The notes: generated from the letters alone by a model not told the origin. DNA of 64,000 nt from Phycisphaeraceae bacterium (GCA_963674705.1 OY771506.1:3648001-3712000), one strand, 5' to 3'. Numbered from the stretch's first letter, positions 18,699 through 53,523 are shown. Program-made: numbers and translations.

Positions 18699-18730
18699 GT
18701 AGGGTGGCGTTAAGCGAAGCGCAACCCACC
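18699..18730 (+). repeat. GTAG-type REP (family B)
   Basis: GTAGGGTGGCGTTAAGCGAAGCGCAACCCACC. Confidence 0.8.
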
Positions 18731-18944: not shown

Positions 18945-19054
18945 ATATCCCAGCTAGATCCGGAGGCTTCCGCGGAGAGGGAGGCAGTGAAGACGGCTGT
19001 GCCAGGCTCGGCGCAGGGGCGTCTTCTTGGGTGTTCCGGGGGGGCTGGGGATAT
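18945..19054 (+). ncRNA. Candidate structured RNA (multi-stem junction), unassigned
   Basis: Nested complementary segments 18945-54/19044-54, 18960-64/19035-39, 18966-71/18980-85, 18989-95/19020-26, 18997-19003/19010-16. G-U pairs favour the + strand. Confidence 0.4.
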
Positions 19055-19240
19055 CACCCATAATTGCATAATATTGAGTCATTTAGACGATTATCAGCAG
19101 GTATGGCAGTGGTTTGCGATCCGGCGCATTTTGTATTTGCGACGCTTTGCTTGACCGTTTGCGACGGCCGTAAATAACGTGCTTGCAGGTGTTTGAGCGG
19201 CCTGTTCCTGTTAAGATAGTCACCCAAAGATGAGTACCCC

Positions 19241-22200
19241 ATGACTCAGCAGTCCAACCAATCAGTACAGGAGCAGCCGCAGGTCCAAGGGGGCTCGGCC
19301 CTGACGCGATTGGGTGAATTGCTCGGACCTCATAAGTACATGCTCGGCCTCGCGGTCCTGATGCTCATCGGGCTGACCGCGGTCAACATCATCATCCCCC
19401 AACTCATCGCGATCGTCTTCGACGAGGTCTTCGAGACCGGCAACTGGATGCTGCTGTTCACCGTGCTCGCCACCATGCTCGGTCTCTACCTCCTGCGCAA
19501 CCTGCTCTACTTCGGCGGCAAGACCATCTCCGTGAGCATCGGTGAGAACCTGTGCTTCGGTTTGCGTAAGCAACTGTTCGAGCGGCTCCAGCACATGAGC
19601 CTGCGTTACTACCAGCACCACAAGCCCGGGCAACTTTCCAGCCGGGTCATGAACGACAGCTACGTCATACAGCAGTTCATCCAGAACGAGTTCCCGACGC
19701 TGATCCAGGCGTTGTTGCTGTTTCTGGGGATCGTGGCGACGACGTACGCGATGAACTGGCAACTCGCCTTGGCGTCGACGATCCTGCTGCCGCTGCACAT
19801 GGCGGCGTTCTACTACATGCGTCGGCCTATCAAGAAGGCGAGCCGGGCCGCGCAGAGCCACCTTGCGGACGCCACCGGCAACCTGATCGAAAAGTTCCTC
19901 GGTATCGAAGTCGTCAAAGGATTCGTCGGCGAGGAAAGAGAGAACGCCGCGTTCGAAGAAGCGATCGACCTGTCTCGCAAGAGCGAGAAGCGTGGCCAGC
20001 AGTTCCATGTGCTACAGAAGGTTTTGGCCGACCTGCTCGTGGGGCTCGGTTTCGCCATGCTGATCGGTTTCGGCGCGTACCAGGTGTTCGGCGTTCCGGC
20101 GAGCAGGGCGCTGGCGCCCGGTGAATTCATCGCGTTCTTCTGGTACGTCCGCATGCTCTACCCGACCGTCATCGAAATGATGAGCGGTTCAGCCAAGCTG
20201 GCCAAAACCAGCGCGAGCATCGACCGCGTGTATGAAGTGCTCGACCTGACGCCCGATGAGATCCTCGAAGAAGCGCAGCGCGTCGAGGCGATCAAAGGCG
20301 GGTTGGAATTCAAGAACGTGTTCTTCAAGTTCGGCGACGGGGCGGATGTGCTCGAGGATATCAGCTTTAAGGTCGAGCCCGGGCAGGTCTGTGCGGTGGT
20401 CGGCCCATCCGGCGCAGGTAAGAGCACGCTGATGAGCCTGGTCCCACGCATGAACGTGCCCACGCAGGGTGAATTGCTGATGGACGGCGAAAACACCGCC
20501 GAGATGCCGCTGCACCACATCCGCACGACGGTCGGCATGGCGTTCCAGGAGGCGTTCCTCTTCAGCAGCTCCATCCTGGAAAACCTGCGATACGCCCGGC
20601 CCGACGCGACACGCGAAGAGGTCGAGAACGTGCTCAAGCGCATCGGCCTGCACAAGTTTGTCGAAGAACTGCCGCAAGGCTATGACACGATGGTTGGTGA
20701 TGAAGGGCTGAGCCTGTCCCGCGGGCAGAAGCAGATGATCACCCTCGCACGCGCCATCCTCAAAGACCCCAAGGTGCTGATCCTCGACGAGGCGACTGCT
20801 TCGATCGACATCGCACAGGAAGCCGCGATCATCCCCGTGATCCTGGACTTCATGAAAGGCAAGACGACGCTGATGGTTACTCACCGCCCCGAACTGCTCA
20901 AGCACGTTGACAAGGTTGTACATCTGGAAGGCGGAAGAGTCGTGTACGACGGTCCACCGGAAGGATTCGATGCCGAAGCATTCACGACGTCCAAGCCCCT
21001 GATCCTGCCAACGGATGAACGTGTCGAAAATCGCGGCCCACAGCACCGGTCTCTGCGTCCGGGTAGTAGTGCGCTCAACCTGTTAGCGATCGGCCTGCTC
21101 AGCGCATTGACCATGTTAGGTGGTACACAACCGATCTATGCCGCCGAGGGCGACGCCGCTGCTGCGCCCGCTGAAACCAAACAAGCTGAGCCCGCACCCG
21201 AAGCGAAAAAAGATGAGCCCAAGCAAGAAGAAGCTAAACCACAGCCCGCTGCCGAAAAACCTGCCGAAAAACCTGCTCCGAAACCCGCCGCCGCACCCGC
21301 GCCAAAGCCGCCCGTTGGCCAGATGATCTCGATGCCCAACACGAGCCGTAACGAGCTGCGCGAACTCATCGACGTCGTCGCGTCTCGCATCCGTGCCGAG
21401 ATGGGTTACGAAACTGCCTCCGGCGAGCAGGTCGCCCTCATCAAACAAACCCCCGATAATCTCAGCTCTCCTGTCACGCTTACAAAACAAGACGGCGACA
21501 ACACCCGGCTCATACAACTCGGCTCCAAGAGCTACCTCAGCCAACCCGGCCAGGTCTGGCTGTTCGGCCAGATGATCACCAGCAACAGCGTCATCGAAAA
21601 CACGGACATCGCCAAAGTCGTTCCCATGATCCAGACAGCCGGCAAAGCTCAGGAAGAACAAGCCAAGAACATTAGTCTGGCTGATCTGAAGTCGGCACGG
21701 ATCGAACTCAGCTACATCGAGGCCGACCGTTGCCTCGGCGTGCTTAAAGGCCTCGGCATCCAGACCATCCAATACAAAAAAACCGGTGACGGCATCGGGC
21801 AGGCGAAACTCATCGAACCTACCGCGCAACTGGATATCAACAATCTCCCCGCCGTCATGCTCATGCCCGGGCCCGACGGCGTCGGACTCGTCGGTGGCTC
21901 ACAGGAGATGAAGTCCAAGACACTCACCGTTGCGCAGAGCCTCAACGACATGACCAGCGCCGCGCCCATGATGAACCTCATGGTCTTCTATAACCCGAGC
22001 CATCCCGAGCAATTCGCACGTGTACACGACCTGGTCCGCCGAACGATCGACGTCGCCTCCGGCCAGATCGTCATCGAGGCCATGGTCCTGGAGATCTCCG
22101 AGTCCGGCCTCAGACAACTCGGAGTTGAGTGGGAACTCGAAACGCCCTTCGGTTCCGATTCATCATTACGCAAAGTCGAATCCGTCCAGTTGGGCCGTCT

Positions 22201-23773
22201 ACCAAGCTTCACCGGCAACCCAGCCCTTGACGCTACTTTCGTAGGCCTGAACAATCACTGGAAAGCACAAATCCAGGCCATGGTCACCTCCGGCCAGGCC
22301 GAAATCCTCTCTCGCCCCAGCGTGCTCACGCTCGACAACCGCCAGGCATCGATCCGTGTCGGCGAGGAAATCCCCATCGCTACCAGCGTCACCGGCACCA
22401 GCGGCGGCGACAAGGTCAGCTTCAGCTTCGAATATATCCCCGTCGGCATCATCCTCAACGTCAGGCCCCGCGTCAGCGCCGACGGCGAAGACGTCAGCAT
22501 GCAGATCGATGCCATCGTCTCCTCGGAAGTCCCCGGCGAAGAACTGGTCCTGCTTGATAACAACGGCGACGAACTCGCCCGCGCGCCGCGCATCGCTTCA
22601 CGCCGCGTCCAGACGCACACACGCATCTCCAACAACACGCCCTTCATCATCGGCGGGCTGGTCAGCAAAGATACGATCAATACCGAAGAGAAAGTCCCGC
22701 TGCTCGGCGACATCCCGATCGTCGGCAACCTCTTCAAGAGCAGCACCAACGACAGGCTCAAACGCGAAGTCATCATCGTCATCACGCCTTACGTCCTGCC
22801 CAAGAACCAGGTCGTCGGCCGCAACACTCCCGAAGACGAAGACGCCTTCGACAGCTTCGATAACGAGCTGTTCCGCGATGCCTACCGCATCCGCGCTGAA
22901 GATGTCTTCGACCTGCGCTTCCTCTTCGAAAACCTGCAGGTCCACAAGATGCTGCGCATGGCCGACCAGATCCTCAACCGCCGGCCCGACTGGGCTTACA
23001 AGTATCCCTTCTCCCAGTTCGCGGATAACCGCATCCCCGGCGAGCGCATCCTTGTCTACCGACAGATCTATGAAGTCATCAAACGCCGAGGCATCGATCA
23101 GAAAACCAACCCCAGCCGGTTGATCTACTTCAAGGATGCGCCCGAGCAGCCCGCAGGTTTCGAGGTCAAGTTCCTCGAGCAATCCCTCGCCAAGATGCTC
23201 GGTGTATCAAAGCCCGCGATACCGATCGGCGATGATTGGCTCTTCGGCAACCTCAAGGATCAGGCCGTCGCCATCACCTTTACCGAGCAACCCTTCGACG
23301 GCGCTATTGACGCGCCCACGCAACCCGTGCCCGATGTCAGCCTTGTTGAATGCCACGACCGCGACGAGTGGGGGGCCTTGCTCTGGGAACTCAACCAACC
23401 CAACAGCCAGGGCCAGCGCCGATTCACTATCCTCCTCAAGGATGGCCGAGACATCGCACGCCTTCGTCGTGCCGTCGTCGTCAAGCAGACCGTCCAGCTC
23501 AACGCCACGCATCAATCGCTGCGTCTGCGCAACTTCACGCAGGGTCGCCTGCTGCTGGTGCCGACAATTAAAGACGATCAGGTATTTTTGATTGACGAAG
23601 ACGTCGCCCAGTACTTCTTCTACACCGAGCACTACTACCCCGCCCTGCAGAGCGAACTGCAACGCGACATGGAAGCACTGCATAATGCCCTGCAAGACCC
23701 GGAATACAGCAGCTACCTGGACGATCCGGATATGGTCAACAAACCCATCCCCTGGCGTCCGACCGGCAGGTAA
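19241..23773 (+). CDS. ABC exporter (TMD+NBD) fused to a secretin (GspD/PilQ-like) with C-terminal extension
   Basis: MsbA-like TMD; Walker A GPSGAGKS (aa ~388); signature LSRGQ; Walker B ILDE; H-loop VTHR. Secretin core QIVIEAMVLEIS, ILSRPSVLTLDNRQASIRVGEEIP, VGIILNVRPRV, IIGGL, KVPLLGDIPIVGNLFKS, REVIIVITP. No stop codon between the domains. Confidence 0.9.
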   Translation: MTQQSNQSVQEQPQVQGGSALTRLGELLGPHKYMLGLAVLMLIGLTAVNIIIPQLIAIVFDEVFETGNWMLLFTVLATMLGLYLLRNLLYFGGKTISVSIGENLCFGLRKQLFERLQHMSLRYYQHHKPGQLSSRVMNDSYVIQQFIQNEFPTLIQALLLFLGIVATTYAMNWQLALASTILLPLHMAAFYYMRRPIKKASRAAQSHLADATGNLIEKFLGIEVVKGFVGEERENAAFEEAIDLSRKSEKRGQQFHVLQKVLADLLVGLGFAMLIGFGAYQVFGVPASRALAPGEFIAFFWYVRMLYPTVIEMMSGSAKLAKTSASIDRVYEVLDLTPDEILEEAQRVEAIKGGLEFKNVFFKFGDGADVLEDISFKVEPGQVCAVVGPSGAGKSTLMSLVPRMNVPTQGELLMDGENTAEMPLHHIRTTVGMAFQEAFLFSSSILENLRYARPDATREEVENVLKRIGLHKFVEELPQGYDTMVGDEGLSLSRGQKQMITLARAILKDPKVLILDEATASIDIAQEAAIIPVILDFMKGKTTLMVTHRPELLKHVDKVVHLEGGRVVYDGPPEGFDAEAFTTSKPLILPTDERVENRGPQHRSLRPGSSALNLLAIGLLSALTMLGGTQPIYAAEGDAAAAPAETKQAEPAPEAKKDEPKQEEAKPQPAAEKPAEKPAPKPAAAPAPKPPVGQMISMPNTSRNELRELIDVVASRIRAEMGYETASGEQVALIKQTPDNLSSPVTLTKQDGDNTRLIQLGSKSYLSQPGQVWLFGQMITSNSVIENTDIAKVVPMIQTAGKAQEEQAKNISLADLKSARIELSYIEADRCLGVLKGLGIQTIQYKKTGDGIGQAKLIEPTAQLDINNLPAVMLMPGPDGVGLVGGSQEMKSKTLTVAQSLNDMTSAAPMMNLMVFYNPSHPEQFARVHDLVRRTIDVASGQIVIEAMVLEISESGLRQLGVEWELETPFGSDSSLRKVESVQLGRLPSFTGNPALDATFVGLNNHWKAQIQAMVTSGQAEILSRPSVLTLDNRQASIRVGEEIPIATSVTGTSGGDKVSFSFEYIPVGIILNVRPRVSADGEDVSMQIDAIVSSEVPGEELVLLDNNGDELARAPRIASRRVQTHTRISNNTPFIIGGLVSKDTINTEEKVPLLGDIPIVGNLFKSSTNDRLKREVIIVITPYVLPKNQVVGRNTPEDEDAFDSFDNELFRDAYRIRAEDVFDLRFLFENLQVHKMLRMADQILNRRPDWAYKYPFSQFADNRIPGERILVYRQIYEVIKRRGIDQKTNPSRLIYFKDAPEQPAGFEVKFLEQSLAKMLGVSKPAIPIGDDWLFGNLKDQAVAITFTEQPFDGAIDAPTQPVPDVSLVECHDRDEWGALLWELNQPNSQGQRRFTILLKDGRDIARLRRAVVVKQTVQLNATHQSLRLRNFTQGRLLLVPTIKDDQVFLIDEDVAQYFFYTEHYYPALQSELQRDMEALHNALQDPEYSSYLDDPDMVNKPIPWRPTGR

Positions 23774-23854
23774 ATCGCGGCAAGCATGTTTAGAATAAAA
23801 ACTATCCTTGTCCGATGAGTGCTGTTTTACAGGATAATTCTGTCTACTCATGGG

Positions 23855-23882
23855 TTGATTAAACCCGCAATCATCCTATATT
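23855..23882 (+). promoter_or_regulatory. Possible sigma70-like promoter for the beta-barrel gene
   Basis: TTGATT (23855-60), 16-nt spacer, TATATT (23877-82). Confidence 0.3.
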
Positions 23883-23995
23883 ACCCGCGTGTACACCATC
23901 CGATTGCAGGGGTAGGGCGGACCAACTCCATGATCGATGCGTGAGAGATCTGACATCCGCTAATCAACTATCGCGAACACTTGAAAGGAATCCCA

Positions 23996-24904
23996 ATGTT
24001 TCACGTCACACGTTTAGGATTGCTCGCGGCTGCCTGCGTTGCAGTCCCCGTACTTTCCCAATCGTCCGCTTCTGCGCAGCACGCCAACTTCGTGCTCTTC
24101 GGCGATCCGAATCCCGCCGCCGCGAATGTCCCCGATTCGCAGAAGCACGTCCACCCCATCACCACCCCGTATTACAACGAAGACTCCTTCGTCACCTCCG
24201 ACGTCCGTGCCTGGTTTGTCTACCACGACTTCCCCAAGTCCAGCGTCATCAACGGCGGTAACGCAAAGGTCTACGCCGCTCAGGTCCGCCTCGCCCTGAC
24301 CGATCAACTCCAGTTCGTCGCCTACAAAGACGGCTACATCGATTGGGACTCCGGCCTCATCAAGGACGACGGCTGGAACGACATCGCCGCCGGCATCAAG
24401 TGGAACTTCATCCAGGACTGGGAAAACCAGTTCCACATGGCTGCCGGTATCGGCTACGAAATCCCCACCGGCGGCTCCGATGTCCTCCAGGACGACGACG
24501 AGTGGCGCTTCTGGGTCTCCGCCAACAAGGGCTTTGAAGAGCTGCACCTCGGCGGCACACTCAACTACATCGTCTCCGATCAACCCAACCAACGCCTCGG
24601 TAACTCCGATCAACTCATCTGGAACGTCCACCTCGACTACTACGTCAGTGAGTTCTTCAGCCCGGTCGTCGAACTCAACGGCTTCCACGTCCTCGACGAC
24701 GGCGGCGTCGTGGTCCCGTTCTCCGGACTCGACGTGGTTAACCTCGGCGGTAACGAAAACGAAGACGTCGTCACCCTCGGCCTGGGCACGGAACTGCGGC
24801 CCAACGATCTGATGTCGATCCGCGTTGCTTATGAAACACCGCTGACCGACAACGACGACCTCTACGGCTACCGCTGGACGTTCTCCCTCGTTTGGCCGTT
24901 CTGA
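23996..24904 (+). CDS. Outer-membrane beta-barrel protein
   Basis: Signal peptide ending ASA, RBS GAAAGGA, alternating aromatic/polar beta-strands (GWNDIAAGIKWNF...GIGYEIPTG), C-terminal YRWTFSLVWPF (BamA-type terminal Phe). Confidence 0.75.
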   Translation: MFHVTRLGLLAAACVAVPVLSQSSASAQHANFVLFGDPNPAAANVPDSQKHVHPITTPYYNEDSFVTSDVRAWFVYHDFPKSSVINGGNAKVYAAQVRLALTDQLQFVAYKDGYIDWDSGLIKDDGWNDIAAGIKWNFIQDWENQFHMAAGIGYEIPTGGSDVLQDDDEWRFWVSANKGFEELHLGGTLNYIVSDQPNQRLGNSDQLIWNVHLDYYVSEFFSPVVELNGFHVLDDGGVVVPFSGLDVVNLGGNENEDVVTLGLGTELRPNDLMSIRVAYETPLTDNDDLYGYRWTFSLVWPF

Positions 24905-34947: not shown

Positions 34948-35520
34948 ATGAAAGAAAGACCCACATCCGTCACCGTGTTCGCGATCATTAATCTTGTCAT
35001 GGCTGGAATGGGATTGTTGCTTTGGATTGTCGGCATGATTTTCATGCTCGGATTGATCAAGCTGCCTGAGCAGGCCGGGCCTAATCCTGCGATGGAGATG
35101 ATGGAGACCAGCACGGGGTTTCAGATATACAGTTACGTAACATCCGGATTTCATCTGCTGGCAACGATCCTGATCATTTCCGCTTCGATAGGGATGTTTA
35201 CCTTGCAGCCGTGGGCGAGGAAGGGCACGATTGTCTGGGCGGTCTACTCGATCGTGTCCAAGGTGGTGACGACTACCGTGCAGCACGTATTGTTTACGAT
35301 ACCGATGTTGAATGACGTGACGGATGATATCCAGCGCACCGGCATGATTGTGGGTGCGGTGGTTGGGGGTGTCTTCATCCTCATGCTGATTGGTTATCAT
35401 CTGTTGCTGATTTACATGATGACCCGACCTCATGTGGTGGATGCGTTTACGCCTGAGCCGGAGGATGAAACACTAGTGGGTTGGGGTAATGAAGATTTGC
35501 CGGAAGGAAATGAAGCGTGA
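34948..35520 (+). CDS. Hypothetical 4-TM membrane protein, first gene of the exporter operon
   Basis: RPTSVTVFAIINLV...WARKG...MTRPHV. Its stop overlaps the next start (GTGA). Confidence 0.75.
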   Translation: MKERPTSVTVFAIINLVMAGMGLLLWIVGMIFMLGLIKLPEQAGPNPAMEMMETSTGFQIYSYVTSGFHLLATILIISASIGMFTLQPWARKGTIVWAVYSIVSKVVTTTVQHVLFTIPMLNDVTDDIQRTGMIVGAVVGGVFILMLIGYHLLLIYMMTRPHVVDAFTPEPEDETLVGWGNEDLPEGNEA

Positions 35521-37022
35521 AGATCATAATCGGCGTGACAATCGGCGTCATCGTGCTTGTCGTGGGGGTAGTCGGCATCGTCGCGATGGTCGCGGGTGGT
35601 GCGGCCGGCGACGGCGAGGGCGGCGGCTTTGGCACGAAGGTGCGGCTTGAGAAGGTGCAACAGGGGCAACTGATCGAGACGGTGGTGGCGCCGGGGCAGG
35701 TGAAGCCTGCGACGAACGTGGCGATCAGCGCGCGCGTGTCGGCCCGTATCAAAGAGATCCCGCATGATGAAGGCGAGCAGGTCACGAAGGGTGATCCGAA
35801 CGCGAACCCGCCGATCCCGGCAAGTGTGTTGATCCGGCTGGATTCGGAGGACCTTGAGGCACGTTTGCGATCTGCCAAGGCCCGGCGCGATGGCCAGGAA
35901 GCGCAGATCGAGGTGGATAAGAAGCGGATCGAGGCCCAGGAGGCATCGCTGCGGGGGACGCTGGCGACGCTCAACGAGGCAGAGCGGAATCTCGATCGGC
36001 ATCGTGAGATGGTGTCGGCGGGGGATGTGAGTCAGACGGCCTACGAGCAGGCACAGGAACATTATGACGGACTAAAAGCCCAGTACGAATCTTCGGCAGC
36101 GAACATTGATGCAGCGAAGCGGGCGATCAAGGTGTCGGAATACAACCTGATCGCGGCAGATGCGGATATCGAGCAGGCGGAGGATAACCTGAGTTACACG
36201 ACGATCGTTTCGCCGATCGATGGGGTGGTGACGAAGGTGAACGTTGAGCCGGGCGAGTTGGCGGTGACGGGGACGATGAATAATCCGGGGACGGTGCTGC
36301 TTGAGGTGGCGGATTTATCGAAGATGCTGGTTGTTGCGGAGCTTGACGAGGCGGATGTCGGGCGTGTGCTGGAAGGGCAGCCGGCGAAGGTGCGGATGCT
36401 GGCGTATCCGGATCGTGTGTTTGACGGCAAGGTGCTGTCGGTAGCGCTATCGGCAACGCGCGGGGGGACGAACTACTTTGATACCGAGATATTGCTGGAT
36501 ACCGAAGGGGACCAGATCTATACGGGCCTGACCGCGGATGCGGAGATCGAGGTGGCGCGTCATGACACGATCATGATCGTACCGAGCCAGGCGGTGTTGG
36601 GCAGGCCGATCGAGGAGTTGCCTTTTGATATCCGGGACAACAACGAGTATGTCGATCAGAGCAAGACGATCGTGACGGTGGTGTACCGTTTTGTGGATGG
36701 CAAGGCGGTGATCACGCCGGTGAAGATCGGGCCTTCAGATGTGACGCACACGATCATCCTGGGCGGGCTCGAAGAAGGGGAGCAGGTCGTGGTCGGGCCA
36801 TACAAGGCGCTTGAATCGATGAAGCACGATCAAAACTTGAAGGACGAGCGTGAAGAGCAGAAGAAGGAAGACGAGAAGGCTGCAAGCGAAGGCGAAGCCA
36901 AAGCGGATGATGTGAAAGCGAAGGACGCTGAATCTGAGAAGGCCAAAGAGCCTGCGGATGATGAAGCGAGCGATGAGGTTGAGCCTGTCGAAGCAGAAGC
37001 GCCTGTGGGCGTGGGGTCTTGA
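35517..37022 (+). CDS. MacA-like periplasmic adaptor (membrane fusion protein)
   Basis: N-terminal TM, ISARVSARI...EGEQVTKG, coiled coil, TTIVSPIDGVV, AELDEADVG. Confidence 0.9.
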   Translation: MKIIIGVTIGVIVLVVGVVGIVAMVAGGAAGDGEGGGFGTKVRLEKVQQGQLIETVVAPGQVKPATNVAISARVSARIKEIPHDEGEQVTKGDPNANPPIPASVLIRLDSEDLEARLRSAKARRDGQEAQIEVDKKRIEAQEASLRGTLATLNEAERNLDRHREMVSAGDVSQTAYEQAQEHYDGLKAQYESSAANIDAAKRAIKVSEYNLIAADADIEQAEDNLSYTTIVSPIDGVVTKVNVEPGELAVTGTMNNPGTVLLEVADLSKMLVVAELDEADVGRVLEGQPAKVRMLAYPDRVFDGKVLSVALSATRGGTNYFDTEILLDTEGDQIYTGLTADAEIEVARHDTIMIVPSQAVLGRPIEELPFDIRDNNEYVDQSKTIVTVVYRFVDGKAVITPVKIGPSDVTHTIILGGLEEGEQVVVGPYKALESMKHDQNLKDEREEQKKEDEKAASEGEAKADDVKAKDAESEKAKEPADDEASDEVEPVEAEAPVGVGS

Positions 37023-37792
37023 AGCCGATGCTGATCCAATTACACAAACTGACCAAGGTTTACAAGGTCGGCGTGGAGCGCGTTCACGCTTTGGCCGGGG
37101 TTGATCTTGATGTCGGCAAGAACGAGTTCGTCGCGATCATGGGTGCGTCGGGTTCGGGCAAGAGCACGCTGATGAACGTGCTGGGTTGTCTGGATCGGCC
37201 GACGTCGGGTGGGTACAAGCTGGCGGGCAAGCGTACGGATCGGATGAGTGCGGCCGAGTTAGCCAAGACGCGGAACCAGCGGATCGGGTTTGTGTTTCAG
37301 TCGTTCGAGTTGATGCCGAGGTTAAGCGCGTTGTGGAACGTGGCGATGCCTTTGACGTATTCGCAGACGCGTTGGCGTGAGCGCAAGGCGAGGTCGATGG
37401 ATGTGCTGAAGCGCGTGGGGCTGGAGGATCGTGCGACGCACAGGCCGAACCAATTATCCGGCGGGCAGAAGCAGCGCGTGGCGATCGCGCGGGCGCTGAT
37501 TAATAACCCGAACATCGTGCTGGCGGATGAGCCGACGGGGAACCTGGACAGCAAAACGAGCGGCGAGATCCTGGAGCTGTTCGTGCGGCTGCACGAGGAA
37601 GGGCAAACGATCATCATGGTGACGCACGAGACGGATGTTGCGTCGCATGCAAGCCGGATCGTGCGGATGAGCGACGGGTTGATCGTTTCGGATTTGCCTG
37701 CTGATGAAGATGAGCAGACGCGAGAGCTGCATAAGAAGCTCATGGCAGAACGTAAACGCAAGTATGCCGGCGTGGAAGGGGGCGAAGCATGA
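37019..37792 (+). CDS. MacB/LolD-type ABC transporter ATP-binding protein
   Basis: GASGSGKS, LSGGQKQRVAIARAL, LADEPTGNLD, VTHE. Confidence 0.95.
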   Translation: MKPMLIQLHKLTKVYKVGVERVHALAGVDLDVGKNEFVAIMGASGSGKSTLMNVLGCLDRPTSGGYKLAGKRTDRMSAAELAKTRNQRIGFVFQSFELMPRLSALWNVAMPLTYSQTRWRERKARSMDVLKRVGLEDRATHRPNQLSGGQKQRVAIARALINNPNIVLADEPTGNLDSKTSGEILELFVRLHEEGQTIIMVTHETDVASHASRIVRMSDGLIVSDLPADEDEQTRELHKKLMAERKRKYAGVEGGEA

Positions 37793-39048
37793 GTATGATC
37801 CGCGCCCCGTTTGCATTGATGGCGTTCTTTACACAGAGCGTGTTGCTTGCGTTGGGGCAGATCTGGTCGAACAAGGTGCGTTCGTTGCTGACGACGATGG
37901 GGATCATCATCGGTGTGGCGTCGGTGACGGCGGTGATCGCGGCGCTATCGGGTATGAAGGCGAACATCCTCGCGGACTTCGAGGTGATCGGGAACAACAA
38001 GATATTTGTGCAGGCATGGCGCCCTCAGACGGGGCGATTCCGGCATGCATCGTGGCGCAGCATCCAGTTCGTCCCCAGTGATTTTGACGGGCTGCTGGAG
38101 CATTGCCCGTCGGTCGAGACGTTTACGCGCATCACGGGGTACAACGCCGCGGTGACTTTTGGCGAGCGTTCGATCGAATCGGCGCGGGTGTCGGGGATCG
38201 AGCCGGCGTGGCATGATATGGAGAACCGGTTTGTCATGATGGGCCGGCCTTTCAATCTTGTCGATGAAGAAGGGGCGCGTAATGTCTGTTTGATCAGCGA
38301 GAAGACGCGCGATGAGTTAAGGTTGAACCGCGATTGTGTGGGCCAGTCGATTTATCTTGATAATGTGCGGTTCCTGATCGTAGGTGTGGTGGACCCGCCG
38401 CGTGAATTTTCGATGATCGGCGGGGGTGGGCCTGACCATGAGATATTCATCCCGTTTACGACGTGCTGGAAACGGTACCAGGGATGGATGGTGGTGTTGC
38501 TGGACGCGGTGAAGCCCGAGATGTCGGATGATGCGCGTGCGGAGATCCGGTTTTTCCTGAGGCGATCGCGTGAGCTTAGACCGGATGATGAGGACACGTT
38601 CCGGATCGAGGCGGTGGAAGCGTTCGTGCAGATCTTCAGCAAGGTCGCCAGCGGGATCACGATGGTGGCGGGCGGGATCGTAAGCATTTCGCTGCTGGTC
38701 GGCGGGGTGGGGATCATGAACATCATGCTGGTATCTGTTTCGGAAAGGACGCGCGAGATCGGTCTGCGCAAGGCGGTCGGTGCGACGCCGACAGCGATCC
38801 TTTTGCAATTCCTGATTGAAGCGATCACGTTGTGTTCGGTCGGCGGTTTGCTCGGGCTGGCGGGCGGGCAGATATTGACGGTGATCATGGGGATGATCCC
38901 TGCTGCGAACCTGGAGCGTGCGTATATCCCGATCTGGGCGATGGTCATATCGATCGGTTTCTCGGCGTTGGTCGGCGTGTTCTTCGGCATGTTCCCCGCG
39001 GTGAAGGCGGCGAGGCTGGACCCCATCGAGGCATTGCGACATGAATAG
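37789..39048 (+). CDS. MacB/FtsX-type ABC permease
   Basis: RSLLTTMGIIIGVASV, VGGVGIMNIMLVSVSERTREIGLRKAVGA, PAVKAARLDPIEALRHE. Confidence 0.95.
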   Translation: MSMIRAPFALMAFFTQSVLLALGQIWSNKVRSLLTTMGIIIGVASVTAVIAALSGMKANILADFEVIGNNKIFVQAWRPQTGRFRHASWRSIQFVPSDFDGLLEHCPSVETFTRITGYNAAVTFGERSIESARVSGIEPAWHDMENRFVMMGRPFNLVDEEGARNVCLISEKTRDELRLNRDCVGQSIYLDNVRFLIVGVVDPPREFSMIGGGGPDHEIFIPFTTCWKRYQGWMVVLLDAVKPEMSDDARAEIRFFLRRSRELRPDDEDTFRIEAVEAFVQIFSKVASGITMVAGGIVSISLLVGGVGIMNIMLVSVSERTREIGLRKAVGATPTAILLQFLIEAITLCSVGGLLGLAGGQILTVIMGMIPAANLERAYIPIWAMVISIGFSALVGVFFGMFPAVKAARLDPIEALRHE

Positions 39049-40675
39049 AAAGCGTTATCTGGGACAACTTGCTTTGCTTACCGTAACATCGGCGCTTTTA
39101 TGGAGCACGGGCTGCAAGGGGCCGTTTGATGACGATCCGGGATTAGCGGTCAACGTCCCGCCGGAGCGGTTCCGCACGATCGAGCCGATGCAGTTCGAGC
39201 CGTCCGAGGACCAGGGCGCGAATTATGAAGATCGTTACGGCAATCCGCCTGCGGAGATGCAGTTAACGATCGACGATTGCCGGGCGCTGGTGATGGAAAA
39301 CAACCTTGAGTTAAGGGTGCAGCTACTGAGCCCGGCGATTGCCCGACAGAGCATCACGCAAGAGCAGGCGCGGTTTGAGGCATTGTTCTACGCCAACGCG
39401 AGCATGATGAAAACCGATACGCCGACGGACACGCAGCTTAGCGGTTCGAGCGTTGAATCAACGAGTACGGACTTCGGCGTGAACCTGCCGCTACGCACCG
39501 GTGGCACGCTGACGTTCGATGTCCCGACCAACCGGACCAAGACGGATAATGTTTTCTCCACGTTGAATCCATCGTACACAGCCGACATGGTTATCTCGCT
39601 GAGCCACAACCTGCTGCGAAACGCGGGGCATCGCACGAACAGCCACGGCATCCGTGTCGCGCATTACCAGTCACAACAGGTGGAAGCGCAGACAAAGCTG
39701 GAAGTCATCCGCGTGGTTGCGGTGGCGGATAGGATGTACTGGCGATTGTACGCGGCGCGCAAAGAGCTTGAAGTACGCAAGCAGCAGCACGAGCTGGCGC
39801 TTGCGCAGTTGGAGCGAGCGAAGCGGCGCGTCGAACAGGGTGCTGATGCGCAGATCGAAGTAACGCGGGCAGAGGCCGGTGTAGCGGAGGGGCTTGAATC
39901 GATCATCATTGCGGAGAATTCGCTGCGCGATTGGGAGCGTACGATTAAAAGGATGTTGAACAAGCCGGGCCTGCCGATGAACAGCCAGACGGTGATGGTG
40001 CCCGCGACCGATCCGGACCCGGTGCATTTTATTGTCGATCCGAAGCAGTTGGTTGAAGCGTCTATGGCCAAGCGGATGGAACTGCTGGACCTGGAACTGC
40101 AACTCGCCGCCGACGCCAGCACGGTGGACTACCGACGGAACCAGAAGCTGCCGTTAGCGGCGCTTGATTACAGCTACATCTCCAACGGCCTGGGTGAATC
40201 CTATGGCGATGCGTTTGAACTGGCGAACCAATTCAACTTTGAAGATCACCGCGTCTCGATGCGTGTCGAGATCCCGTTAGGCAATGAAGCTGCGGAGAGC
40301 GCGCTACGCCGTGCATTGCTGACCCGCCTGCAGCGTTTAGCGACACGCGAGCAGCGCCGTGCTGCGATCGAGCAGGAGGTGCTCAATGCGGTGGATCAAC
40401 TGGAAGCCAACTGGCTGCGCATCCTGGCTGCAAGACAACGAGCGATCCTAGCCGGGCGCACGCTTGAGGCGGAACTGCGCCAGTTTGACCTGGGCTTGAA
40501 CACATCGACAGACGTGCTGGATGCACAAGCGCGCTTTTCCAATGCACAATCCGCGGAGGTGCAGAGCCTGGCCGACTACCAGATCGCGCAGATCGATCTG
40601 GCGTATGCGACGGGCACGGTGCTTGGCGCAGCGAATATCCGCTGGGAAGAGCCTGAGCCTGAGTTAGATGAGTAG
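39041..40675 (+). CDS. TolC-family outer-membrane efflux lipoprotein
   Basis: Lipobox-like WSTGC, ALVMENNLEL, helical repeats, QFDLGLNTSTDVLDAQ, DLAYATG. Confidence 0.9.
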   Translation: MNRKRYLGQLALLTVTSALLWSTGCKGPFDDDPGLAVNVPPERFRTIEPMQFEPSEDQGANYEDRYGNPPAEMQLTIDDCRALVMENNLELRVQLLSPAIARQSITQEQARFEALFYANASMMKTDTPTDTQLSGSSVESTSTDFGVNLPLRTGGTLTFDVPTNRTKTDNVFSTLNPSYTADMVISLSHNLLRNAGHRTNSHGIRVAHYQSQQVEAQTKLEVIRVVAVADRMYWRLYAARKELEVRKQQHELALAQLERAKRRVEQGADAQIEVTRAEAGVAEGLESIIIAENSLRDWERTIKRMLNKPGLPMNSQTVMVPATDPDPVHFIVDPKQLVEASMAKRMELLDLELQLAADASTVDYRRNQKLPLAALDYSYISNGLGESYGDAFELANQFNFEDHRVSMRVEIPLGNEAAESALRRALLTRLQRLATREQRRAAIEQEVLNAVDQLEANWLRILAARQRAILAGRTLEAELRQFDLGLNTSTDVLDAQARFSNAQSAEVQSLADYQIAQIDLAYATGTVLGAANIRWEEPEPELDE

Positions 40676-42584: not shown

Positions 42585-42759
42585 TGACCAAAGGTATCCG
42601 GTCATGCGCGCGGGGCGTTTCGCGGACATGAACGGGTATCCGCCAACAAGGTTTTAGCGGCTGTGGGGGACCACGGACGGGATGGGCTGGGTGTTATCAC
42701 AGCCCGTCTATTCTTATCAGTACACATGGTTTGATTCCAAGCCGTCAGGAGAACGAAAG

Positions 42760-45700
42760 ATGACCAAGTCGACAAGCTCGCAGGGTTCGAAGCAGCGTTT
42801 TGGCAGCCGGCGTGCATACCGCAGGTGGCTGAAGCGACAGCAAAGTGGCGTGAGGACGATGTTATTTAGTCCTGACACACGGCAGGGCCTGGAGGCGCTT
42901 GAGCAGCGTGTGCTGCTTTCGGCTTCGCCGGTCTTCGAACTGTCGGACCTGTTAGCAGCCAACGGCGGCGATGGGTCGGAAGGCGTCGTGATCAACGGCG
43001 TATCGATCGACGACCGCGCGGGCGTATCGGTCAGCTCGGCGGGGGATGTGAACGGCGACGGTTATGAAGACATGATCATCGGCGCGTTCCGTGATTCGCC
43101 CAACGGCGTGGACTCGGGCTCCAGCTATGTCATCTTCGGTACGGCAAACGGGTTTAATCCAACACTGCAACTGTCTTCGCTGAACGGGACCACGGGCTTT
43201 AAGATCAATGGTATCGCGGCGGGCGATTACTCCGGTCGGTCTGTATCCAGCGCGGGTGATGTGAACAATGACGGTTATGACGACCTGCTGATCGGCGCGT
43301 TCTACGCCGATGGCAGCGCTGTTGATTCCGGCCAGGTGTATGTCGTGTACGGCGGGGCGAGCTTCTCTTCGACGCTTCAGTTGTCGGCACTGAACGGGAC
43401 CAACGGCTTTACGATCAGCGGCGTGTCGGCGGATGATCATCTTGGCTTCAGCGTCAGCAATGCCGGTGATGTGAACGGGGACGGTATTGATGACTTTATC
43501 CTGGGCGCATCGGATTCATCGCCAAACGGTGCAGCTTCGGGTACGGCGTATGTGATCTTCGGGCAGGACGGCGGATTCGGTAGCAGCTTCGATCTGACCA
43601 CACTCAACGGCAGCAATGGTTTTGCAATCGAAGGTGTTTCTGCGGACGATCAACTGGGTATCGAAGTCAGCGGCGCCGGCGATGTGAACGGCGACGGCAT
43701 CGGCGACCTGATCGTCGGGGCGTTCCTGGACGATACGAACGGCGGCGACGCGGGTGCGGCGTATGTGATCTTCGGCGCAAGCAGCGGTTTCAGTGCGACG
43801 TTTGATCCTTCGACGCTCAACGGCAGCAATGGTTTTGCGATTCTAGGCGCGGCAGCGGGCGACAACGCGGGGCGCGGTGTCAGCGGCGCCGGCGACTTCA
43901 ACGGCGACGGCTACGCGGACCTTATCATCGGCGCACCCGGTGCGGATGGTTCTTCGGCCGACTCCGGCAGTGCGTATGTCATCTTCGGCAAGGGCACGTC
44001 ATTCAGCAGCTCGATTAATCTGGGTTCACTCAGCGGAAGCAACGGGTTCAAGCTCAACGGTATCGATCTCGATGACCAGGTGGGCGTATCTGTCAGTTCC
44101 GCCGGCGATGTGAATGGTGACGGGCTGGATGACTTATTGATCAGCGCGGATAACGCGGACCCGAACGGCAACCGGTCGGGCGAAACGTATGTCGTGTTCG
44201 GACGCACTTCGGCGATGTCGGCGTCGATTAACCTTTCTGCGCTCAGTGGCTCAGATGGTTTTGTGATCAACGGCATCAATAGCGCGGACCGGTCGGGCTT
44301 GTCGGTCAGTTCGGCAGGCGATGTGAACGGCGACGGTTATGACGACATGATCATCGGTGCGTTCCTTGCGGACCCGAACGGTTCGGCATCCGGGCAGAGC
44401 TACCTGGTCTACGGCGGCGACTTCTCTGATGCCGTGACGGAAGAAGGCTCGCAGGTAAGTGATGCGATCACCGGCACAACGGGTGCGGACGTGATTGTTG
44501 CCGGCAGTGGTGATGATATCGTGGACAGCCGGGGCGGCACGGATGTGGTCAACGCCGGTCAGGGTGACGACGAGATCATCATCCGGAACCTGAACTTCAC
44601 GCAGATCGACGGCGGGCGTGGCACCGACACGCTGACGATCGATGGTTCGGGGATATCGCTCGATCTTTCGACCTTCACGCCGACTCAACTGAAGAACATC
44701 GAGGCGATCGACATCAGCGGCGGGGCGAACTCGGTAACACTGACCGTTGAAGACATCCTGAATCTTTCCAACAGCAGCAATACGCTGACGATTACCTATG
44801 ACATTCTCGGTTCGGTCAACTTCGGCAGCGGCTGGGCGCAGCAAAGCAATGAGACCATCGGTAACGAGCAGCATATCACGTACACGCAAGGCAACGCGAC
44901 GTTGATCCTTATCATCAAGGCTGATGTGATCGATCCGGTCGTTACGATTGATCCACTGAAGACGGATTCACGCTCACCGCAATTGACCGGTACGGTGTCC
45001 GACCTTGATCCGGACGTTGATATTGAGGTAACGGTCGATGGGATGGCTTACACAGCAACCAACAACGGTGATGGCACATGGACGCTGGCGGCCGGCGTGA
45101 TCACACCTGACCTGGCGGACGGTATTTACAGTGTGACCGTCACGGGTACGGATTCTTCGGGTAATGTCGGCAGCGATCAGACGTCAAACGAGCTGATCAT
45201 CGACAATGAAGACCCGGTCGTCACGATCGACGTGCTTGAAACGATCGAGGTATCACCCGTGCTGACGGGCACGATCACGGACCTCGATCCGGCGACGACG
45301 ATCAGTGTGACGGTCGATGGTGTTACGTATGACGCGGTGAACAATGGCGATGGAACATGGACGCTCGATCTGAGCGCAGAAACGGTTGTTCCTGAATTGG
45401 CAGAGGGGACGTACGAGGTATCGGTGACGGCAACCGATACGGTCGGGCATACCGGTTCAGACAGCACGACAGATGAATTGACGATTGACCTGACTGATCC
45501 GGTCATCACGATTAATGATCCAGGCACGGTGACCACTGCCTCGCCCGTGTTGACGGGGACCGTGACGGACGCGGACACGGAAGCGACGGTTCGTGTTTCA
45601 ATCGATGGTGTGGTTTACGAAGCCGTGAACAACGGTGACGGCACATGGACGCTGGACCTTAGTGATGAAGAGATCGCCCTGGTCCTGGATGAGGGCGATT

Positions 45701-48700
45701 ACGAGATCAACGCGGCGGCCATTGATGCGGCCGGCAATAGCGCAATGATTGATGCAACCGTCACGATGACGGTTGACCTGGCGCCGGTGGTGACGGTTGA
45801 TGTGAAGACGACCAGCGACACCACGCCGCAGATCACCGGTACGATCGACGACATGGACGTAACAGCGGAAGTACTCGTCACAGTTAACGGGACGCAATAC
45901 ACGGCGACGAACAACGGCGACGGGACATGGACGCTCGAAGACGACACAATAACTTCTTCGCTTGCGGACGGGGTGTATGATGTTTCCGTACAGGCGACAG
46001 ACAGCTTCGGCAATATCGGCACGGACACCACGACAGATGAACTGACGATTGATACGGCTGCGCCGACGGTGACGGTGGATGCGTTGATTACCAACGACAC
46101 CCGGCCTGAGATTACCGGTACGGTCAGCGATGCAGAATCGACTGTCAGCGTTACGATCAATGGAACGACTTATACCGCGACGAATAACGGCGACGGTACA
46201 TGGACGCTGGCGGATAACATGATAGGCATCGCACTGGCTGAGGGGATTTACGACGTCGAGGTGACGGCGACGAACCTGGCTTCCGAAGTCGGCACGGACA
46301 GCACGACGAACGAGCTGGAAATCGATCTCACCGCGCCGACAGTGGCTATCGACACCCTTACCTCGGGTGACTCCACGCCGACCCTGACAGGGGCGGTGAA
46401 TGATTTTGATGCGGAAGTCGTAGTCAACATCATCGGTGGGGAGTCGTACACCGCGACCAATAACGGGGATGGAACGTGGACGCTTGAAGGCAACACGATG
46501 ACGGAAGAACTCGCTGTCGGGACGTACAACGTTCTTGTGACGGCGACCGACGTAGCGGGTAACAGCGGGAATAATGACAGCAATTACATCGGTGTGTTAG
46601 AGATTATCGATTCACCGTTCACGCTGACGGTGGACACGTTGGAGACCAACGATTCAACGCCCGAAATCACGGGCACGATCGAGGGGGACACGACCGGTGT
46701 GACGATCACGGTCACGATCAACGGCACGGAGTACACCGGGGTTACAATCGATGGCAACACCTGGACGCTGGCGGATGGCTCGATTACCTCGGCGCTGGCC
46801 GACGGTGTGTATGAAGTGACCGCGACGGGTACGAACAGCGATCCGTTCTCGATCGACGACAGCACGATGAACGAGCTGACGATCGACACGACGGCCCCGA
46901 CCGTGACGGTTGATGCGCTGACAACGAGCGATTCGACGCCTGAACTGACCGGCACCGTCGACGATGCCTCTGCGACAGTCATGGTGACCGTCAACGGCAC
47001 CGAATATCAAGCCACGAACAACGGCGACGGCACGTGGACGTTGGCGGACGATACGATCAGCCCGGCGCTCACGGTTGGCACGTACGATGTGTCCGTCAGT
47101 TCCGAAGATACGTTAGGCAACAGCGGCTCGGACGCGACGGTGGACGAGTTGATTATCATCGAATCGACGATTGACGTAATCAATCTGGCGGACCTGCTTG
47201 CTGCGAATGGCGGCGACGGCAGCGAGGGCTTCGTGCTTAATGGTGAATCCGCCAACGGCTGGGCGGGGGTCTCTGCCAGTCTGGCTGGGGACATCAACGG
47301 CGACGGCTATGACGACATCGTCATCGGCGCGAACATCACCAGCCCGATCAGCTTCCAGGACGGCACGGTTTATGTCATCTTCGGTTCGGCGAGCGGGTTC
47401 CCGGCGGAGATCGAACTCTCGTCGCTGGACGGTACCAATGGTTTCCGTATCGATGCGATCCTGGCCGGTGAGAACCTGGGCGTTTCGGTCGCGACAGCCG
47501 GCGACTTCAACGGCGACGGGATTGACGACCTGATCATCGGCGCCAGCCACGCGTCACGCAACGGCAGCCAGTCCGGTTCGGCGTACGTGGTCTACGGCCA
47601 ATCAACGTTCTCCGCGAGTTTCGATCTGTCGACGCTCGACGGGACCAACGGCTTCCGCTTCGACGGCGCGGCGATTGGTGACCGCACCGGCTTCTCCGTC
47701 AACACAGCCGGCGACATCAACGGCGACGGGCTTGCGGATGTGCTGATCGGCACGACCAAGGCCGACGACGGTGTCTTGATCGACGCCGGCAGAACCTACG
47801 TGATCTACGGCTCGACTTCAGCGATGACCTCCGTCATCGAAGTTGGCGACCTCAACGGCACGAATGGTTTCATCCTCACAGGCGCTGCAGCCGGCGAGCG
47901 TGCGGGCTTCAGTGTCAGTTCCGCCGGCGACGTCAATGGCGACGGCTATGATGACATCCGTATCGGCGCGCCGGGCCTGGATTCCAGCGACGCGGGACAG
48001 ACGTATATCGTCTTCGGCCAAAGCGGAAGCTATGGCACGGAGCTGAACCTCGGTGATCTCGACGGCACCAACGGCTTTGTGATCCTCGGTGATCTTGCTC
48101 AGAGTTTCCTGGGCTACTCCGGCTCGGGTATCGGCGACTTCAACGGCGACGGCTTCGATGACATCCTCGTCAGCGCCCCGGCAAGCAACCTCGGTTCGGA
48201 AGCCGGCGCAGCGTATGTCATCTACGGCCACGGCGGCAGCTTCTCCGCTTCGATTTCGATCGCTGATCTGGATGGTAGCAACGGATTCGCAATCCTCGGT
48301 GATGCCGCCGGTGACCTGGCAGGCTTCAACGTCTCTGGTGTTGGCGATGTCAACGGCGACGGGCTCGATGACTTGCTGGTCGGTGTGCCGCAAGCCTCCG
48401 GCGGCGGTTATGAACAGGGCGAATCGTATCTGCTCTTTGGCGCGGCTACGGGTATCGGCGCCAGCATTGACCTTGCGACGCTTCCGGGCAACGGCGGGAT
48501 CGTCTTCAACGGGGTTGCGTCCTCGGACCACGCCGGGCGTTATGTCAGCATGGCAGGCGATGTGAACGGCGACGGTTTTGCCGACTTCATCGTTGCGGCC
48601 CGTGATGCTGATATATCAACCAACAACGACGCCGGGCAGATCTATGTTGTCTTCGGCCAGGATTACCTCGGCACCGCGACACAGCTCGGCGACGAAACCA

Positions 48701-53324: not shown

Positions 53325-53523
53325 GTAGGGTGCGGTTAAGCGCAGCGCAACCCACCACAGCCACACATTGACTCTATTGGTTTATCAAACCGACCACTTC
53401 AAACGATGGTCAACAATAAAACATCGATAGGATGCGGGCGCCCCGCGCATTTTGTCGATCGCTATACATCCAGTGGCGTACAGTTAACTATGGTGGGTTG
53501 CGCTTCGCTTAACCGCACCCTAC
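53325..53523. repeat. Inverted REP pair (family B, REPIN-like)
   Basis: GTAGGGTGCGGTTAAGCGCAGCGCAACCCACC (53325-56) and GGTGGGTTGCGCTTCGCTTAACCGCACCCTAC (53492-523). Confidence 0.85.

Follow-up and report, generated by a model that had tools for sequence, protein, structure and literature searches.

The window analysed here is a 64 000 nucleotide stretch of DNA from a Phycisphaeraceae bacterium (GCA_963674705.1 OY771506.1:3648001-3712000), and the gene of interest occupies positions 19241-23773 on its + strand. It is a single reading frame of 1510 codons that begins with an ATG at 19241 and runs to a stop codon ending at 23773, and its product (P0001) joins a six-helix type IV ATP-binding cassette (ABC) half-transporter, an internal signal peptide and a secretin in one chain. 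An earlier reading of the bare sequence (the original prediction) had claimed such an uninterrupted frame, and translation, which shows no inner stops, bears this out. Pfam searches of P0001 place ABC_membrane at residues 36-303 (E-value 4e-38), ABC_tran at 371-520 (E-value 1e-31) and Secretin (PF00263) at 1013-1186 (E-value 5e-46; 157 bits against a cut-off of 27.5). The frame is real and conserved: public contig X1, which may be the window's own source, spans 19000-24000 unbroken with zero differences, and contigs X4 and X6, which stem from two further studies and are about 94 % alike, read through the junction of ABC half and secretin, no indel being listed within the frame. An assembly artefact or a one-off fusion is ruled out by X4 and X6 together with the recurrence of the arrangement in relatives and at other loci.

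Scanning GTDB genomes yielded 402 confirmed stretches, and the counts for near loci given throughout refer to the 80 loci returned plus the window (81); the genome, protein and near-locus sets overlap, so that their counts are not additive. The ABC half and the secretin are fused at 30 of the 81 near loci, the window included, and at 22 others the ABC half is a separate gene directly 5' of the secretin, these being true adjacent splits. Four loci carry frameshifted copies (L023, L050, L051 and L058) and were kept out of the split count, as was G007; at one (L061) the neighbouring ABC gene is unrelated. No ABC gene is present at 24 near loci, of which 16 have an MscS gene directly upstream, one (L081) has a different MscS gene 350 bases upstream of the secretin, one (L053) has the secretin alone without a listed partner at the locus, and six are cut by contig ends. 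When the window's own genome and 40 relatives are taken together, the secretin half finds a strong match in 23 of the 41 (16 fused, five with the ABC gene separate just upstream, one cut by a contig end and one broken), the remaining 18 giving weaker, generic ABC matches only. A protein search with residues 940-1510 returned 686 matches, and among the best 120 of these, 86 exceed 1150 residues and hold a Walker A motif; matches to fused proteins include Phycisphaeraceae and the cultured carriers Poriferisphaera corsica (P0047) and Mucisphaera calidilacus (P0066). The fusion is thus found in many other Phycisphaerae, a recurrence that the original prediction had looked for, and it is retained across lineages that are about 45-50 % identical.

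In a secretin-half tree of 73 rows, from which cut, broken or unrelated loci (L029, L032, L051, L060, L061, L063, L098 and L100) were left out, the split state has four origins, each lying beside or within fused lineages, and the MscS-paired group forms one side of a branch with support of 99, the root not being fixed. From this topology the fused state is likely to be ancestral. The original prediction had named stops between the halves, or unlinked homologues, as signs against a genuine fusion; these are seen in part among the relatives, one bin having unlinked halves, and they indicate that covalent linkage is dispensable rather than that the fusion is an artefact.

The ABC half consists of a type IV exporter transmembrane domain (PF00664; residues 36-303; 19346-20149, +) and a nucleotide-binding domain (PF00005; residues ~355-575; 20303-20965, +) with Walker A at 388-395, the signature LSRGQ at 492-496, Walker B at D516/E517 and the switch histidine at H548. 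Pfam and a motif check therefore agree with the predicted membrane domain and full nucleotide-binding domain bearing GPSGAGKS, LSRGQ, ILDE and VTHR. Across 52 fused proteins Walker A and the Walker B glutamate are invariant and the switch histidine is nearly so, as are several transmembrane charges (R86, K94, H186, K260 and D264, among others), a pattern that would suit a hydrophilic cargo. The closest bacterial structure is TM_0288 (E-value 6e-89), the half falls under every NCBIfam cut-off listed, and its orthologues form a group of >42 % identity with the signature LSRG-E/Q; its periplasmic loops are short. It is likely to act as a homodimer, because no spare partner half is seen in the genome: the sole Walker-B-degenerate ABC half adjoins a partner of its own, and a heterodimer with it was rejected for that reason.

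Between the two halves lies a segment that was originally predicted simply as a linker. A linker does exist, and within it is what the prediction missed, a signal peptide at residues ~598-634 (21032-21142, +) with a basic n-region, an h-region at 614-626 and a c-region ending in P-I-Y-A. The 13-residue hydrophobic core is followed by G-G-T-Q-P-I-Y-A, then by A-E-G-D and an Ala/Pro-rich spacer, and cleavage would be expected after A634 (or A635). The spacer (residues 635-692; 21143-21316, +), some 58 residues that are flexible, rich in Ala, Pro, Lys and Glu and poorly conserved, would form the N-terminus of the mature secretin. The internal h-region is present at all 30 fused loci, with a median 13-residue hydropathy of 2.29 (minimum 1.95), and after it our regular expressions find a peptidase-I-like site in 24 and, in the remaining six, a lipoprotein-like cysteine; the latter type occurs in a clade whose separate secretins likewise have a signal-peptide cysteine. 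A similar hydropathy (2.32) is seen for the signal peptides at the N-termini of the 22 separate secretins, and a value of 1.7 is reached by one of 28 mature spacers but not by any of the 19 separate ABC tails of testable length. Among the best 120 protein matches the internal signal peptide is found in 84 of 84 parsed long proteins (86 long, two unparsed). In-frame start codons 2-35 codons before the h-region occur at background frequency in the 30 fused loci, with ATG in 17 (16.5 expected) and any start codon in 25 (26.3 expected); five loci, the window among them, have none. A second kind of fusion is seen in P0239 of the Acidobacteriota, in which a cyclic-nucleotide (cNMP)-binding domain is followed by a hydrophobic signal-like segment and the same secretin. 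The signal-peptide pattern, the background level of start codons, the four origins of the split state and P0239 together argue that the gene probably encodes a polyprotein cut at the membrane into an ABC protein and a secretin.

The secretin half was modelled over residues 693-1510 (pLDDT 79). Its first domain, which we call domain X (residues 693-809; 21317-21667, +; pLDDT ~90), has a helix-grip-like fold resembling the BamC N-domain (Z 7.7, rmsd 3.4, 94 aligned), tied with KA1/START-type folds; no function was drawn from this likeness, which is middling and shared with unrelated helix-grip folds. It is followed by a single N3-like domain (residues ~815-940; 21683-22060, +) that contains a long low-confidence insertion and matches the EscC periplasmic domain (Z 8.7, rmsd 1.9, 67 aligned). 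The predicted 'N-domain-like segments' hold for the latter and not for residues 693-809, which are neither N0 nor N1, and P0001 has no match to the N0-related models PF21305 or PF03958, both of which match two paralogues in the same genome. The barrel, with both gate hairpins, occupies residues ~942-1187 (22064-22801, +; PF00263 and Foldseek) and leaves ~320 residues beyond it, close to the predicted core at ~942-1183 with ~325 to follow; Foldseek relates the model to InvG, GspD, PilQ and pIV (E-values 2e-15 to 6e-9), with RcpA also returned. The best NCBIfam match is the GspD model TIGR02517, at 189 bits against a cut-off of 351. Domain X is present at 52 of 52 ABC-paired near loci and at none of the 16 near MscS-paired loci; the idea that it is an ABC-specific dock is weakened by its presence at L053 and L081 and beside MscS at L157, L158 and L178, and it is missing from the fused P0130.

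The C-terminal domain (residues ~1195-1510; 22823-23770, +), of about 310 residues, has no Pfam match and is confidently modelled (pLDDT 92, pTM 0.90); it would follow the last barrel strand, where GspD has its S-domain. Fold searches gave a best Z of 4.4 and no Foldseek match at E<=0.001, which does not prove a new fold, and a search of the ESM Atlas gave weak leads only (0.79, 0.76). It has 293 relatives among representatives at 50 % identity, and every newly listed relative of more than 600 residues also holds a secretin domain; its distribution is patchy, with nine of 401 Planctomycetota genomes encoding it. On these models the secretin defines a family of its own, marked by a C-terminal domain without a structural match. 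Additional SPOR, CBM9 or AMIN domains are found in some members (P0163, P0164, P0178, L120, L138 and L140), a hint that these bind the cell wall or carbohydrates. The window's genome holds four other secretins, three of them in clusters of type II secretion system (T2SS) or type IV pilus (T4P) kind and two of those three with N0 domains; the fifth secretin of the genome is a stand-alone TPR-secretin of 1138 residues (L184:5970-9386), with no adjoining secretion genes seen.

No T2SS, type III secretion system (T3SS) or pilus genes are found by Pfam among the 22 neighbouring frames between 5606 and 37022, in keeping with the original prediction, and none appears in the recurring neighbour clusters of the 81 near loci or of 80 distant ones, singletons there being only partly annotated. 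The distant set comprises metagenome loci found with distant members of the family, annotated by Pfam on representatives and for the rest by BLAST. Their same-strand neighbours include an ABC half at 17 loci (12 fused), an NTT/TLC-HEAT protein at 21 and an MscS protein, with or without a cNMP-binding domain, at five, and two kinds of partner are never seen at one locus (0/80). The NTT/TLC-HEAT genes, which mostly include a cNMP-binding domain, lie directly beside the secretin (21/80; e.g. L106:4229-10052, L109, L116, L120, L136 and L140), as do genes for MscS with a cNMP-binding domain (L068:916-4498, L083, L088, L157 and L178). Domains of this type occur at 24 of the 80 loci; a class I cyclic-nucleotide phosphodiesterase (PDEase_I) lies 3' of the secretin at L153:3812-4999 and six more loci, and a GAF-PAS-cyclase at one (L140:13375-15291). 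In the Verrucomicrobiota a pair of MscS-cNMP and secretin genes is followed by a Sel1/TPR protein (14 loci). Another secretin clade lies between an uncharacterised lipoprotein-like gene and an EF-hand-like protein (L117, L123, L132, L142, L161 and others), and none of the three membrane partners is seen in it. Catalytically dead ABC halves are found directly 5' of the secretin at L101:1547-3268, L104:5630-7411, L105:72-1799 and L110:2497-4314. With the window's ABC half as query, no orthologue was found in three MscS-type genomes (<=32 % identity) or in the genome of L081.

Where the ABC half is the partner, its identities track those of the secretin (Spearman 0.80 over 50 loci), and of 33 supported splits in the secretin tree 27 are found again in that of the ABC half. 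Because the halves stay adjacent or fused and diverge in step, they are likely to form a dedicated unit, and the fusion fits into no curated family. To this extent the hybrid ABC-secretin pathway originally predicted fares well; as one envelope-spanning chain it does not, given the conserved, cleavable-looking signal peptide and the 22 split loci of four origins.

The explanation that we favour, and to which we give about an even chance as a whole, is that a cleaved polyprotein supplies an ABC homodimer and a secretin ring that together form a two-step export route. The ATPase would be made in the cytoplasm, after which the internal signal peptide would re-engage Sec, the secretin of ~875 residues would be threaded into the periplasm and signal peptidase I would cut after A634; in the lipoprotein lineages the cysteine would be lipidated and signal peptidase II would make the cut. 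Taken jointly, re-engagement, threading and cleavage seem to us quite probable on the sequence pattern. The fusion would fix 1:1 synthesis of the two products at one site. The ABC halves would then pair, the secretin would form a gated ring in the outer membrane, and its C-terminal domain may sit at the outer wall on the periplasmic side, in the manner of a built-in pilotin or scaffold. The transporter would bring a hydrophilic, probably anionic cargo (an oligosaccharide-, peptide- or nucleotide-type molecule) into the periplasm, from which the secretin would release it in a second step, with domain X and the N3-like domain as the periplasmic receiving end; if the preceding steps are granted, this part could go either way. 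Two steps are preferred to a one-step tunnel because there is no adaptor to seal such a tunnel, and neither an adaptor nor TolC nor biosynthetic genes recur near the ABC-paired loci. A complex prediction for the dimer of the ABC membrane domain (18-338, two copies) with domain X and N3 (693-942) scored 0.00, which we treat as neutral.

Several points weigh against this explanation. No cargo genes recur near the ABC-paired loci either, and we infer cleavage, assembly, contact and cargo, what was observed being domain content, conservation, signal pattern and neighbourhoods; the motif calls for the signal peptide were made with expressions of our own and not with SignalP. One fused clade of ten metagenome loci retains a conserved Met heading the signal peptide, with no evident Shine-Dalgarno motif there. 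Co-divergence of the two halves is expected from shared descent alone, and of 31 supported splits in the ABC tree five disagree with that of the secretin; the bin of L053 has an ABC orthologue (47 %) on another contig beside unrelated genes. The ABC signature is non-canonical (x-S-R-G-E/Q in 83 of 84 relatives, LSRGQ in the window), the switch histidine is lost in L035, L042 and L049, and the distant separate ABC partners of L101, L104, L105 and L110 lack both the catalytic glutamate and the switch histidine, so that pumping is not universal. In other lineages the ABC half is replaced by MscS-cNMP or NTT-HEAT-cNMP proteins, and 37 of the 80 distant loci, many on short contigs and some on long ones, have none of the three partners, 14 of these having an uncharacterised lipoprotein-like gene. 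That a pump delivers substrate to a pore, as was originally proposed, would thus be a deduction, some partners being catalytically dead or replaced.

The same observations are the strength of the best-surviving alternative, in which the polyprotein is cut and the ABC half serves as a nucleotide-sensing gatekeeper or platform rather than as a cargo pump, so that the pore might open on ATP or a cyclic nucleotide. Each of the three kinds of partner sits in the inner membrane and has a nucleotide-binding module on the cytoplasmic side, and no two kinds occur together (17, 21 and 5 of 80); MscS stands directly 5' of the secretin at 16 near loci, three such genomes having no ABC orthologue above 32 % identity; cNMP-binding domains and phosphodiesterases recur and a cyclase occurs as described, dead ABC partners are retained in place, and the atypical signature runs throughout. 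Nevertheless the catalytic glutamate, Walker A and many transmembrane charges are invariant in the 52 fused proteins, as in a working transporter, the periplasmic loops of the ABC half are short and no cNMP gene lies beside the window locus, and we consider the gatekeeper alternative rather unlikely.

An uncut chain, its hydrophobic segment serving as a seventh membrane helix and its spacer as a tether across the periplasm between secretin and ABC half, would account for retention of the fusion over lineages of ~45-50 % identity and for a flexible spacer of ~58 residues. The segment is, however, signal-peptide-like rather than anchor-like, its 19-residue hydropathy being 1.78 against 2.43 for the best true membrane helix; cleavage motifs follow it in all 30 fused loci, the lipoprotein-type cysteines imply processing, and 22 loci arising from four independent splits do without a tether. 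We regard this alternative as improbable. Much the same standing is given to the idea that the secretin serves a T2SS or T4P machine encoded elsewhere as an alternative pore, with the ABC half merely co-expressed: the genome does hold T2SS/T4P clusters, the best NCBIfam match is to GspD, and one secretin can serve two processes according to PMC12475490. Yet the three clusters have secretins of their own, two with N0 domains, and that of P0001 has none and scores 189 against the GspD cut-off of 351; no such genes recur among the neighbours of the 161 loci, and the link to the ABC half survives four splits. That two genes share one frame after loss of a stop codon, the secretin being made from an internal start, is very improbable, since the conserved Met of the ten-locus clade and a start with a Shine-Dalgarno-like motif in four of 30 loci are set against start codons at background level, absent from five of 30 loci including the window, and a full-length product would still need processing.

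Returning to the proposed cleaved polyprotein, its secretin shares with GspD (PulD, XcpQ, ExeD), PilQ, SctC/InvG, RcpA and pIV the barrel, the gate hairpins, an N3-like domain and export by a signal peptide. It differs from them in having domain X instead of N0-N2, in the ~310-residue domain that replaces the S-domain, in falling under all NCBIfam cut-offs and in being the tail of an ABC transporter with no T2SS, T3SS or pilus genes recurring beside it. The ABC half shares the six-helix domain and ATPase of MsbA, Sav1866 and TM288; it differs from MsbA in missing the cut-off of TIGR02203 (348 bits against 602) and in bearing a C-terminal signal peptide and secretin. In type I secretion an ABC exporter is coupled to a dedicated outer-membrane channel, and HlyB-HlyD-TolC is alike in this respect; the fusion unit, in contrast, has no membrane-fusion protein, TolC or C39 domain, its channel is a secretin, and its match to the HlyB model (269 bits) misses the cut-off of 726. 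For the processing, a parallel is FbcH of Bradyrhizobium japonicum, a cytochrome b-c1 polyprotein in which a membrane protein and an exported protein are parted at an internal signal; both FbcH products stay in one inner-membrane complex, whereas here the second product would be a secretin of the outer membrane, and the signal comes after a large cytoplasmic ATPase. The lipoprotein-type fused members (6/30), to which the window protein does not belong, would be lipid-anchored like the liposecretin HxcQ, which is part of a full T2SS. Neither an ABC-secretin fusion nor the other pairings were found described in the openly accessible literature searched, without supplements, in which a domain table might list such a protein.

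The secretins known so far open by means of a filament or needle, and for ABC exporters the way out leads through channels of TolC or OPX type. If the proposal is true, a secretin whose sole partner is a transporter of small-solute type would give Gram-negative cells a further route across their envelope and would suggest a new way for a secretin gate to be opened. It is possible, at slightly less than an even chance, that these loci represent a new class: a secretin system without pilus, pseudopilus or needle, its family marked by the C-terminal domain and relying on a single, exchangeable nucleotide-binding protein of the inner membrane (an ABC exporter, a cyclic-nucleotide MscS channel or an NTT-HEAT-cNMP carrier), made in Phycisphaerae as a polyprotein cut by signal peptidase and forming a minimal two-protein envelope route. 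Its novelty would rest on architecture, the function being proposed from sequence. The gene would also offer a clean natural case of a bacterial polyprotein in which a single chain yields one inner-membrane and one outer-membrane protein; nature offers fused and split versions, lipoprotein and non-lipoprotein ones, for comparison, the 310-residue domain is well modelled and without a structural match, and the cultured carriers make the system testable. Two uncharacterised families (NTT-HEAT-cNBD and MscS-cNBD) would in addition be tied to an outer-membrane pore. The NTT-HEAT and cyclic-nucleotide-binding unit described in PMC5381601 corresponds to the alternative neighbour of this secretin family; its function is called unknown there, and the accessible part of that paper does not mention 'secretin'. 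For the cargo, the accessible part of PMC12475490 describes slime nozzles of cyanobacteria and Myxococcus in which PilQ or GspD is needed for export of slime, a non-protein polymer, which provides a precedent for non-protein secretin cargo; those secretins are ordinary PilQ/GspD, and this part of the paper names no ABC partner and does not mention Planctomycetes.

On the 5' side of the fusion gene are opposite-strand genes with a weak LolA-like match and a SASA esterase match in Pfam, and on its 3' side an uncharacterised frame of 307 residues and then a cbb3 oxidase cluster, which recurs at eight close loci only and was taken as local synteny rather than as a functional link. A scan for promoters and terminators at the locus gave nothing decisive. 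An HlyD-family gene, two more genes and a TolC-family gene at 35517-40675 form a separate efflux-type cluster, which lies 12-17 kb downstream of the fusion gene, has adjoining genes of its own and is not conserved with the fusion. A frame of 2313 residues is open at 42682-49623. Finally, a 32-base imperfect palindrome, which resembles REP elements, is present in three copies (18699-18730, 53325-53356 and 53492-53523), with none expected by chance.

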